Source of the DNA: a virus
Taxonomy: Duplodnaviria > Heunggongvirae > Uroviricota > Caudoviricetes
Virus record (IMG/VR): IMGVR_UViG_2740892235_000009
Length of the DNA: 6,421 bases
Direction: 5' to 3' (one strand)
Position 1 is the first letter of the stretch; the number at the start of each line of letters is the position of its first letter. Under the pieces are notes generated by a model, which was given only the letters and a program-made list of their open reading frames with translations, was not told the DNA's origin and made no database searches. Positions 1,172 through 2,892 of the stretch are shown here, piece by piece. A program made the position numbers and the translations under genes.

Positions 1172-1478
1172 TGGCGAATAATACCCGACAGTAATCACGC
1201 TGCGCAATAGCGTGGCCTTTTTCGAATTGCGGGCTGTAGTCTCCCTTCTGCCGGGTGTCCTGGTTGCAGATTTCTTCATGGGGTAGGGTTCGGCAGTTAA
1301 AGCAGCGATGGCGCTGGGGCGTCGTGCAACTGGCGTTGAGCTGGATACCGGGCGTTTTGAACAGACTGCGCAGGAAATCAGGGATGTATTTAGCGGGAGC
1401 GGTTTGCAGAAGTAATCTCCCAAAATGCCATTTTTGGAATATACTGGTATTAAGTCTTTTTGCTAAGGTTAATTCAAA

Positions 1479-2204
1479 ATGGATGTTGCCTGCTCTGTGG
1501 TCCTGATTCGCTATCCGATAGATATTTTTCTTGAAAAAGAAAAAGTTTCACTCGATGCCGGAAGTGTTATGCTTGTTGCCAGAAATATAAGAGGGCTTTT
1601 CTGTGCTTATGCCGACAGAGTGAAAATGGCAGATATAAGTAACAGCGTCGTCAATCAGTATCTGGAAAGGGAGTGTGAACTGACGGAGTATACACCGACA
1701 AAAATGCCTCTTTATTTGATGTCTGATATTTACAATACGGAACTGGCGGAGGCTTTAATAACCCGGCATAGTGAATCCAGTGATACTTTGAAGGATTTCT
1801 CTGTTATAACCGCATTTTCATGTATCTCCTTATTTGCAACAGACAGACGTCTGCCATTATTTTTGTCCGGTGCTGTAAATAATATCAGCTGTAAAGTAAG
1901 GGCTATAATTCAGACCGACATATCGGCAGGCTGGATGCTTGGTGTGATTGCATTACAATTGCATATGAGCGAAAGCTTGTTGAAGCGAAAACTTAAGGAT
2001 GAAGGTTATAGCTTTAGTCGGTTGTTGCTGGAGGAGCGAATGCGTGTTGCTGTTAATCTTGTATGTTTCCAGCGAGAGTGTGGACAAGCGATAGCGGAAA
2101 AATGTGGTTACTCAAGTAAGTCCTACTTCATTTCTGTATTTCACCAGTATTATGGTGCACCACCTGAGAGCTATGCATATTTGCAGAAAGCAGACGTTAT
2201 CTGA
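1479..2204 (+). CDS. AraC/XylS-family transcriptional regulator (prophage-encoded GadX/PerA/PatE-like)
   Basis: 241-aa ORF; the C-terminal ~100 aa has the two helix-turn-helix units typical of AraC/XylS proteins (..ISAGWMLGVIALQLHMSESLLKRKLKDEGYSFSRLLLEERMRVAVNLV....QAIAEKCGYSSKSYFISVFHQYYGAPPESY). Markedly AT-rich relative to flanks, typical of horizontally acquired, H-NS-silenced regulators. Start at ATG 1479 (weak AAGG RBS); internal starts are possible. Confidence 0.85.
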   Translation: MDVACSVVLIRYPIDIFLEKEKVSLDAGSVMLVARNIRGLFCAYADRVKMADISNSVVNQYLERECELTEYTPTKMPLYLMSDIYNTELAEALITRHSESSDTLKDFSVITAFSCISLFATDRRLPLFLSGAVNNISCKVRAIIQTDISAGWMLGVIALQLHMSESLLKRKLKDEGYSFSRLLLEERMRVAVNLVCFQRECGQAIAEKCGYSSKSYFISVFHQYYGAPPESYAYLQKADVI

Positions 2205-2293
2205 TGTTTTTTCATCAGGCATATATTGATTGACTGTATTAGATATAGTCTGAATGTGTTCAGCATAAAAAGTTATAATCATTTGGTGTTTGC

Positions 2294-2572
2294 GTGAATA
2301 TTGATGAGAAAATCAGATGTAGCCAATTGTTACAGCGTATTGAAGCCGTCAATGTGGAACGAACAAAGGTCTTCAGTCGTCTGACAGTTTTATTTTGTAC
2401 CCCTGATCGACGTTCAGGTCAGGAGATGGTTCTTCTGGATGTAGATGCACTTCGGAACGTCTGTGAGGAGTTCACCGCGGCTAATTCGGAGTTACTGAGT
2501 CTTGTTCAGGAGTACAACAGAATTGCAGGTAGTAACGGTTTTGATGAAATCAAAATTATATCCCGTGGATAA
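2294..2572 (+). CDS. Hypothetical protein (92 aa), possibly co-acquired with the AraC regulator
   Basis: ORF in the same AT-rich block, 90 bp downstream of the AraC gene, same strand. First in-frame start is GTG 2294 with only a weak RBS; no recognisable domain. Coding status not demonstrated. Confidence 0.35.
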   Translation: MNIDEKIRCSQLLQRIEAVNVERTKVFSRLTVLFCTPDRRSGQEMVLLDVDALRNVCEEFTAANSELLSLVQEYNRIAGSNGFDEIKIISRG

Positions 2573-2892
2573 AACATATCCTGTATATTTATGTTGTTAC
2601 ATACAGGCGCTTTTAGTATCTGCCGCACGGCAGTTGTACTTCAGAATAAGATGCTTTTGTGACTGGTGGTGTTGTATCTGGGGTTAGCCAGGAGGCAGGT
2701 TCAGAGAGTCCGGTGGTAATTATGTGTATGCAGTGGTTGTTGCTGTACCGTGGGCAAGTTCTGGAACTGGCTTCGTCCATTGTAGATGATTGTTAGCTGG
2801 ATATCAGTTACCTCATGGAAATGTTAAATGACTCACAATTCGGTTGATGGACTATTGTCTGATCGATGGAAGTCTTGTAAAAACGAGCCAGC

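Follow-up and report, generated by a model that had tools for sequence, protein, structure and literature searches.

The locus described here raises the question of how a gene for an AraC-like regulator came to lie between an interrupted nanS-p leader and a complete one in a prophage of Escherichia coli. The DNA analysed, hereafter the window, is a stretch of 6,421 nucleotides (IMG/VR record IMGVR_UViG_2740892235_000009), which an earlier note had read as a pre-existing cassette-leader-nanS-p unit interrupted by a moron that carried the regulator. Comparison with related prophages led to a different account. The part of the window that bears the regulator is a joint formed by recombination among the late genes of a lambdoid prophage of E. 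coli, the product of ordinary prophage mosaicism and not a new type of element.

Organization of the window and its prophage setting

The window consists of three pieces stitched together through ten-N runs at 4412-4421 and 6110-6119, and the first of these pieces carries the finding. A prophage of E. coli RM10466 is 100% identical over positions 1100-2860, as are many other genomes. In the RM10466 prophage, where every gene lies on one strand, the order begins with antiterminator Q, two small ORFs, an intact DNA methyltransferase gene, tRNA-Ile and tRNA-Arg; it continues with a lipoprotein bearing a TolA C-terminal domain (window 354-782), a methyltransferase pseudogene and a “helix-turn-helix domain-containing protein” (window 1479-2204), and it ends with the SASA-family esterase nanS-p, DUF1378, DUF826, holin and lysozyme. 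A SASA-family esterase is annotated in L001 at the place that matches nanS-p of the window.

The repeated “cassette” of the earlier note proved to be the sRNA family STnc100 (Rfam RF02076), with six copies in the window: copy A at 890-1102 (+ strand; 172.4 bits, E 4.2e-40), four tandem copies at 2862-3841 (+ strand; 119-142 bits each) and one at 4702-4916, after the end of stx2B. A complete leader (3842-4068, + strand) directly follows the four-copy array, and nanS-p starts at 4069. No Rfam family was matched within 1266-2700 at E ≤ 0.1, the matches elsewhere in the window being the six STnc100 copies and a tRNA end; ARAGORN found no complete tRNA. Positions 1251-2727 belong to a lambdoid prophage of the non-Stx kind and lie in its late regulatory region, in the variable slot between antiterminator Q and the nanS-p/lysis genes. 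It is this slot that stx occupies in the Stx phages.

The truncated leader and the methyltransferase remnant

The limits of the leader that follows copy A (1103-1252, + strand) were set by aligning it with the two complete leaders, those at 3842-4068 and 4917-5139. Relative to the uninterrupted stx2B-STnc100-leader-nanS-p copy (4702-5140), it is conserved up to “...TCTCCCTTCTGCC” at 1252, where identity is lost in the alignment; the megablast match extends to 1262. The direct repeat formed by 1104-1238 and 4917-5051 is 93% identical, and the final ~88 nt of the leader, together with the start of nanS-p, are absent after copy A. The break that had been placed near 1265 is therefore real, but its position by alignment is ~1252. 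Three terminator-like hairpins were detected by terminator scan between copy A and the AT-rich block; those of the truncated leader are at 1110-1131 (- strand) and 1199-1216 (+ strand).

Beyond the break, positions 1251-1415 (+ strand) hold what remains of an N6/N4 DNA methyltransferase gene, a pseudogene reduced to its last 52 codons, as indicated by nucleotide identity to the 3' ends of intact methyltransferase genes and by the pseudogene call of PGAP. Over positions 1251-1366, 88% of the nucleotides agree with the 3' end of the methyltransferase gene that stands intact 1.5 kb upstream in the same prophage; across genomes, the remnant is 88% identical to the intact 3' ends in L001 and L002 and 82% identical to that in L004. 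Its translation reads PGVLVADFFMG*GSAVKAAMALGRRATGVELDTGRFEQTAQEIRDVFSGSGLQK, with an internal TAG (1284-1286) in place of a serine codon, so that a short C-terminal piece with an internal stop stands where a functional enzyme of this kind would have the complete N6/N4 DNA methyltransferase catalytic domain (PF01555). The earlier note had suspected that the short frame which ends at 1415 might be left over from the C-terminal part of a displaced gene. This was borne out, since this 35-aa frame is the tail of the methyltransferase pseudogene. The remnant marks the left end of the incoming segment, and the joint runs from leader position ~1252 to the last 52 methyltransferase codons.

Limits of the AT-rich block and the genomes that lack it

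The AT-rich block that follows had been placed at 1266-2700. Its AT-richness and gene content are real, but comparison with genomes that lack the AraC gene sets its limits at 1441-2727 (1287 bp). The GC content of this interval is 0.407, against 0.511 for 830-1440 and 0.505 for 2728-4411, so that its base composition is distinct from that of the neighbouring phage DNA, as would be expected of a moron. The block is present in 80 of 5426 complete E. coli genomes, with at least 99% identity in each; among 50,697 phage records it was not found, and these match the leader only.

With a probe across the right edge, nine further genomes matched solely from window position 2728 onward. These nine E. 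coli genomes lack exactly 1441-2727 and are otherwise colinear, with the same leader-to-methyltransferase joint; in L002 and L003, which are among the nine, gene order and joint agree with the window and the AraC gene is missing. Window positions 1-1440 correspond to L002 4565-6002 (97.4%) and positions 2728-3178 to L002 6001-6451 (97.8%). The block is thus present or absent as a discrete 1287-bp unit between the colinear window and L002 or L003 prophages, which is a second property of morons. The joint itself was found in 88 complete genomes when ≥80% of the junction probe had to be covered.

Because nine genomes have the joint and no block, truncation of the leader and the presence of the AraC block are independent events. 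The proposal that the AraC block had replaced the downstream part of the leader cannot be maintained, since the leader is cut at the joint with the methyltransferase remnant at ~1252, and this cut is shared by the nine block-free genomes.

Two parental arrangements and their crossover

The sources of the two sides of the joint can be recognized in other prophages. A synthetic query across the predicted intact junction retrieved 37 genomes with an unbroken tolA-STnc100-leader-nanS-p arrangement in which the leader is complete. The order was confirmed in L080, whose TolA-like protein shares its accession with that of L001, and the comparison with uninterrupted prophages proposed in the earlier note could thus be made. 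The first parent type is Q - 65-aa ORF - methyltransferase - tRNA-Ile - tRNA-Arg - tolA-like lipoprotein - STnc100 - leader - nanS-p.

The second parent type is Q, followed at some distance by methyltransferase - AraC-like regulator - ORF92 and then, in another relative, by leader and nanS-p behind an STnc100 array. L004 carries Q, a 65-aa ORF, an intact 350-aa methyltransferase, an AraC homologue, two STnc100 copies, leader and nanS-p, and window positions 1251-2175 are colinear with it at 69% nucleotide identity. L060 (IMG/VR), L007 (an SRA assembly) and L082 (a food metagenome) share the order methyltransferase, 86 nt, 242-aa AraC homologue, 130 nt, 92-aa ORF92 homologue; L060 and L082 have the methyltransferase as a complete frame of 349 aa, and in L007 this frame is open from the contig edge. 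In L005, the order is Q, an Rce1-like protein, an AraC homologue, STnc100 and nanS-p. A leader remnant upstream of the AraC homologue was found in none of L004, L060, L007, L082 and L005.

These arrangements bear directly on the origin of the regulator. Since other prophages show the methyltransferase-AraC(-ORF92) order without a leader remnant, the methyltransferase tail, the AraC gene and ORF92 came as one module. An AraC homologue behind an intact methyltransferase gene without any upstream leader remnant, as in L004, L060, L007 and L082, also speaks against a free-standing AraC moron dropped into the leader, and it is the outcome that the earlier note had named as refuting its reading. The idea of a moron within a pre-existing unit was correct insofar as foreign DNA does interrupt such a unit, and prophages with tolA-STnc100-leader-nanS-p uninterrupted do exist; the unit and the event, however, had been misidentified.

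The exact allele was found only in the composite arrangement. All ten distinct contexts of the exact 241-aa protein show the same composite order. Complete E. coli genomes did not contain this AraC allele behind an intact methyltransferase gene, and the distinctive 3' end of the remnant is confined to 89 composite genomes. GTDB species representatives gave no such arrangement, only a distant Neiella match, and searches of IMG/VR and metagenomes returned the same composite or a 64% methyltransferase-AraC relative instead. The known methyltransferase-AraC parents are 60-64% amino acid relatives of the window regulator. Both parental arrangements exist, and two variants of the Q-to-nanS-p slot were joined.

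The joining probably occurred by a single illegitimate crossover, with the leader of the first parent type on one side and, on the other, the 3' end of the methyltransferase gene as found in the second parent type. Such an event would yield the leader stump, methyltransferase tail, regulator, ORF92, four STnc100 copies, full leader and nanS-p in the order seen in the window. The incoming piece started within the methyltransferase gene and probably extended through the STnc100 array further downstream; a second non-homologous joint is not needed, because the STnc100 array, leader and nanS-p are common to both parent types.

Polarity of the 1287-bp difference

The nine block-free genomes might have lost the block or might never have had it. 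The polarity of this indel was judged from synteny and from a short alignment at the breakpoint. We favour later loss, in which short imperfect repeats probably served as the end points of a deletion that removed the 1287-bp block from a minority of the genomes. The opposite order, in which an AraC-minus composite resembling L002 arose first and the block was later inserted as a moron 25 nt past the stop of the methyltransferase remnant, appears unlikely to us, although it accounts for a clean indel with an intact “empty site” in nine genomes, for a block GC content 10 points under that of the flanks and for the near clonality of the AraC-plus genomes (≥99%), as expected from a recent gain.

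The age of the gene order argues against insertion. The methyltransferase-AraC adjacency is common to three lineages (L004; L060/L007/L082; the window) that are ~40% diverged in protein, and it is therefore much older than the ~2.5% divergence between the flanks of AraC-plus and AraC-minus prophages. The left breakpoint points in the same direction. A 33-nt local alignment with L060 (24/33 identical) spans it, with p~0.02 against shuffles, and so does a candidate -10 element, TATACT (1440-1445, + strand), located ~33 nt upstream of the AraC start and aligned with TATAAT in L060. In L004, too, the AraC start is preceded by a TATAAT, but MAFFT places it in other columns than the TATACT of the window, and the intergenic L004 alignment across the left breakpoint was not significant against shuffles. 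Moreover, the block ends share “AT” and an imperfect repeat of ~21 nt (12 matches, read by eye from the junction sequences), as in a deletion between short repeats, and no target-site duplication, inverted repeats or recombinase were found at the block ends, where an insertion might have left them. On these grounds, secondary deletion in the nine genomes would be about three times as likely as later insertion.

The AraC-family regulator

The 241-aa protein (1479-2204, + strand) is an AraC/XylS-family regulator, as had been supposed, and belongs to the Psr/PatE/GadW/YdeO clade. It has the C-terminal domain of ~100 aa with two helix-turn-helix motifs that characterizes the family, and it exceeds the cut-offs of both Pfam models: HTH_18 (PF12833) with 47.3 bits against 33.6, at residues 158-232, and HTH_AraC (PF00165) with 41.4 bits against 26.6. 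The NCBIfam YdeO model matches residues 1-230 (E 1.6e-34), with scores far under the equivalog cut-offs NF007407 and NF007432 (119.6 against 348 bits for YdeO and 92.5 against 500 for GadX), and the protein belongs to phrog_1450 (E 1e-91). Amino acid identity is 59% to PsrB, 37% to the PatE candidate, 35% to GadW, 31% to YdeO and 31% to AppY, in agreement with the expected relationship to PsrA/PsrB and PatE. A dN/dS of 0.16 against homologues with 60-63% amino acid identity indicates purifying selection. Related genes with 60-80% nucleotide identity occur in ~730 further genomes, usually two per O157:H7 genome.

The names of the reference proteins need a comment. PsrB (z2104 in OI-57) and PsrA (z1789 in OI-50) are prophage-encoded secretion regulators of E. 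coli O157:H7. PsrB was represented by WP_000301797.1, the AraC-like gene by position in the EDL933 OI-57 prophage, the name being inferred; the corresponding PsrA gene was expected in EDL933 OI-50, and no AraC-like gene is annotated in the OI-50 stretch read. WP_000301797.1 is 91% identical to a second O157-type paralogue (L005), to which the window regulator is 58% identical. As the published identity of PsrA and PsrB is ~90%, this agreement fits the identification of PsrB. The PatE gene (z0321, CP-933H / OI-8) was likewise represented by a candidate, the only AraC-family gene in CP-933H.

The window regulator and PsrB (237 aa) are both of the AraC/XylS family and can be aligned end to end, and the EDL933 OI-57 gene is likewise located between a Q-type antiterminator and the nanS-p/lysis genes. 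The same slot, from antiterminator to nanS-p/lysis in a lambdoid prophage, is used in L001, L009, L069, L004, L005 and L060, and all homologues with 58-64% amino acid identity lie between Q and nanS-p. At the same time, identities of 59% and 58% are far from the ~90% that would be expected of PsrA or PsrB itself. The divergence is uneven: in the comparison with PsrB, identity is 48% over the first 130 residues and 72% over the DNA-binding half, with the residues around the two helix-turn-helix motifs almost unchanged. The surroundings differ as well, the window regulator being flanked by a methyltransferase upstream and ORF92 downstream, and PsrB by tRNA genes and TerB. By these sequence comparisons, the protein is a new member of the Psr-type group of prophage AraC regulators that forms a distinct subfamily and is not an orthologue of PsrA/PsrB, of which it is probably a diverged paralogue.

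More distant relatives are informative in a similar way. PatE is also a prophage-borne AraC-like activator of acid-resistance genes and shares the “M..CSV” N-terminus and the two-domain layout, but the identity is only 37%, and its gene lies at the end of a P2-like or remnant prophage beside an integrase fragment, outside the Q-to-nanS-p slot. GadW, YdeO and AppY, the AraC-family acid and stress regulators of E. coli K-12, are homologous to the window regulator over the full length, and AppY is prophage-borne too (DLP12), but they are only 31-35% identical, and the YdeO and GadX scores given above separate the protein from these families. With the morons of the lambdoid late slot (stx, bor/lom type), the locus shares low-GC accessory genes between Q and the lysis genes and the possibility of Q-dependent read-through, but the block was not inserted as a self-contained unit, having come in as part of a longer recombinant segment.

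ORF92

The 92-aa frame at 2294-2572 (+ strand, GTG start), already noticed in the earlier note, is a real gene by the evidence of its homologues, its membership of phrog_2873 (E 1e-46) and its conservation. The L007 homologue is 62% identical in amino acids without gaps, has the same length and the same GTG start, and gives a dN/dS of 0.34; L060 and L082 also carry a homologue of the same length after the AraC gene. PGAP left the frame unannotated in the RefSeq records examined, and there was no match in Pfam, NCBIfam or PADLOC. An AlphaFold2 model (pLDDT 81.9) predicts two long antiparallel helices at residues 3-35 and 50-81, that is, a helical hairpin. A PDB fold search gave no match better than E 0.46, only generic helical hairpins, and a resemblance to the anti-activator TraM was set aside, as a fold match with E 0.94 is not evidence. 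The connection between ORF92 and the regulator is loose, since ORF92 is absent beside PsrB and beside the L004 and L005 AraC homologues and stands alone in L008, after tRNA genes and cut by an IS element.

Expression and possible targets

As an autonomous unit, a moron would bring a promoter and a terminator of its own. A consensus sigma-70 promoter scan around both genes revealed no + strand site; a candidate -10, the TATACT described above, aligns with TATAAT in L060. Downstream of ORF92, weak hairpins mark a possible terminator region (2566-2665, + strand; hairpin 2620-2633 by terminator scan), and an RNA fold of 2566-2665 had a z-score of only -1.71, which is not significant and does not indicate a strong terminator. 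In the lysogen, the regulator would depend on a weak or silenced promoter of its own. Upon induction, it would be expressed by read-through from the Q-antiterminated late transcript, as may be supposed because the regulator and ORF92 genes lie downstream of Q on the same strand.

The regulator would most likely raise acid resistance by binding AT-rich promoters, those of gadE and hdeA in the GAD acid-fitness island. PsrA, PsrB and PatE activate gadE and hdeA and indirectly repress LEE (PMC10877973, PMC8565820), and homology to these proteins, with 59% identity to PsrB, makes gadE and hdeA the best guess for targets. Another reading is that the regulator acts on the prophage or its neighbours, such as the STnc100 array, nanS-p or the lysis genes, and not on the host acid-resistance island. 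Every member of the subfamily examined does lie between Q and nanS-p, beside STnc100 copies, and an N-terminal domain just 48% identical to that of PsrB may respond to different inputs; nevertheless, we regard this reading as improbable in view of a DNA-binding half that is 72% identical to PsrB with nearly the same helix-turn-helix surroundings, and of characterized relatives that act on host gadE and hdeA.

It may also be asked whether the block is merely inert cargo, its two genes being silenced or in decay and without present function. The failure to find a consensus promoter, the lack of PGAP annotation for ORF92 and the loss of the block from some genomes without other change would all suit such a state. 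In 80 complete genomes, however, neither frame is disrupted, and in the assembly collection 2244 blocks list the regulator with exactly this sequence; the dN/dS values of 0.16 and 0.34, obtained against relatives ~40% diverged, and the placement of both proteins in established PHROG families further argue against decay, and we consider inert cargo very improbable. Equally improbable is the more elaborate proposal of a two-gene control module in the stx-equivalent slot of a non-Stx prophage, in which an AraC-type activator and a helical-hairpin partner or anti-activator would act together in LEE-negative STEC. Host acid resistance or the adjacent STnc100 array might then respond to prophage induction or to a signal perceived by the diverged N-terminal domain. 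The explanation that we consider probable as a whole combines a crossover between slot variants, a Psr-paralogue regulator with presumed GAD targets, later loss of the block in a minority of genomes and ORF92 as a conserved phage gene.

Hosts and significance

The hosts listed, which include O113:H21, O91:H21, O22:H8 and O178:H19, are mostly of serotypes known as LEE-negative STEC. If they do lack LEE, the regulator is unlikely to act in type III secretion, the secretion read-out of the Psr proteins would not apply, and an effect on acid resistance is more to be expected.

The locus is a clear example of how the Q-to-nanS-p slot is reshuffled through unequal recombination between related prophages, although neither this reshuffling nor a Psr-type regulator in the slot will surprise specialists. 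The prophage AraC-like regulators PsrA, PsrB and PatE rewire acid resistance and virulence in O157:H7. The allele described here is present in about 1.5% of complete E. coli genomes, mainly from isolates of bovine and human origin whose serotypes are known as LEE-negative STEC, in which the aids to gut passage are less well understood. The AraC-plus and AraC-minus prophages L001 and L002 constitute a natural near-isogenic comparison.

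Structure of the window, the nanS-p leader and the STnc100 array

Two runs of ten N (4412-4421 and 6110-6119) show that the window consists of three pieces stitched together, and the contiguity of features across these gaps is not to be assumed. The second piece starts within the 3' end of stx2B, the stop codon of which is at 4627, and the third repeats part of nanS-p, forming a direct repeat (5872-6109 and 6121-6358) of 95% identity.

The nanS-p leader, conserved at ~93% in hundreds of genomes, is opened in each of its occurrences by a GC-rich hairpin (1110-1131 and 3849-3871) located directly 3' of the STnc100 terminator. 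A-runs and T-runs flank these hairpins on both strands, which gives them the appearance of a bidirectional terminator. In strain SCU-106, whose prophage lacks the AraC block, the truncated leader is interrupted at its very beginning, just 3' of STnc100 copy A (equivalent to ~1108 of the window), by an inserted IS200C transposase (5064-5522 of locus L003); this insertion is the reason that the strain fails the leader-to-methyltransferase junction probe.

The copy number of STnc100 in the array between ORF92 and nanS-p (2862-3841) appears to differ among otherwise identical prophages. Among the ten distinct contexts of the exact AraC protein (L070-L079), the starts of AraC and nanS-p lie 2061, 2330 or ~2590 nt apart, with a step of ~260 nt; we take these spacings as 2 to 4 STnc100 copies. 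Prophages without the AraC block carry about two copies.

TolA-domain ORF, psrA and ORF92

The 142-aa ORF at 354-782 (plus strand) is made up of the C-terminal domain of TolA (Pfam PF06519 at E 5.7e-23; phrog_5772) and occupies the stx-equivalent position, 3' of tRNA-Ile and tRNA-Arg. Its GC content is 41%, AT-rich like the AraC block, and its hydrophobic N-terminus, closed by TTGC, looks lipoprotein-like by eye. The product might protect against colicins or filamentous phages by serving as a decoy for TolA.

According to the literature, psrA (z1789) is located on OI-50. In the resequenced EDL933 assembly (L011, NZ_CP008957.1 1625001-1675000), the OI-50 prophage carries nleL, espN and espK; only ~240 nt separate its antiterminator from a pseudogene of TerB, and the annotation shows no AraC-like gene there. 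Either psrA may be located at another place in the resequenced genome, or the original EDL933 assembly may have differed.

An ORF92 homologue (58% identical) was found in L008 (5560-6325) directly 3' of the tRNA genes downstream of Q, its 3' end seemingly replaced by a putative IS terminus. No AraC gene is present beside it; ORF92 is thus a unit of the slot that moves independently.
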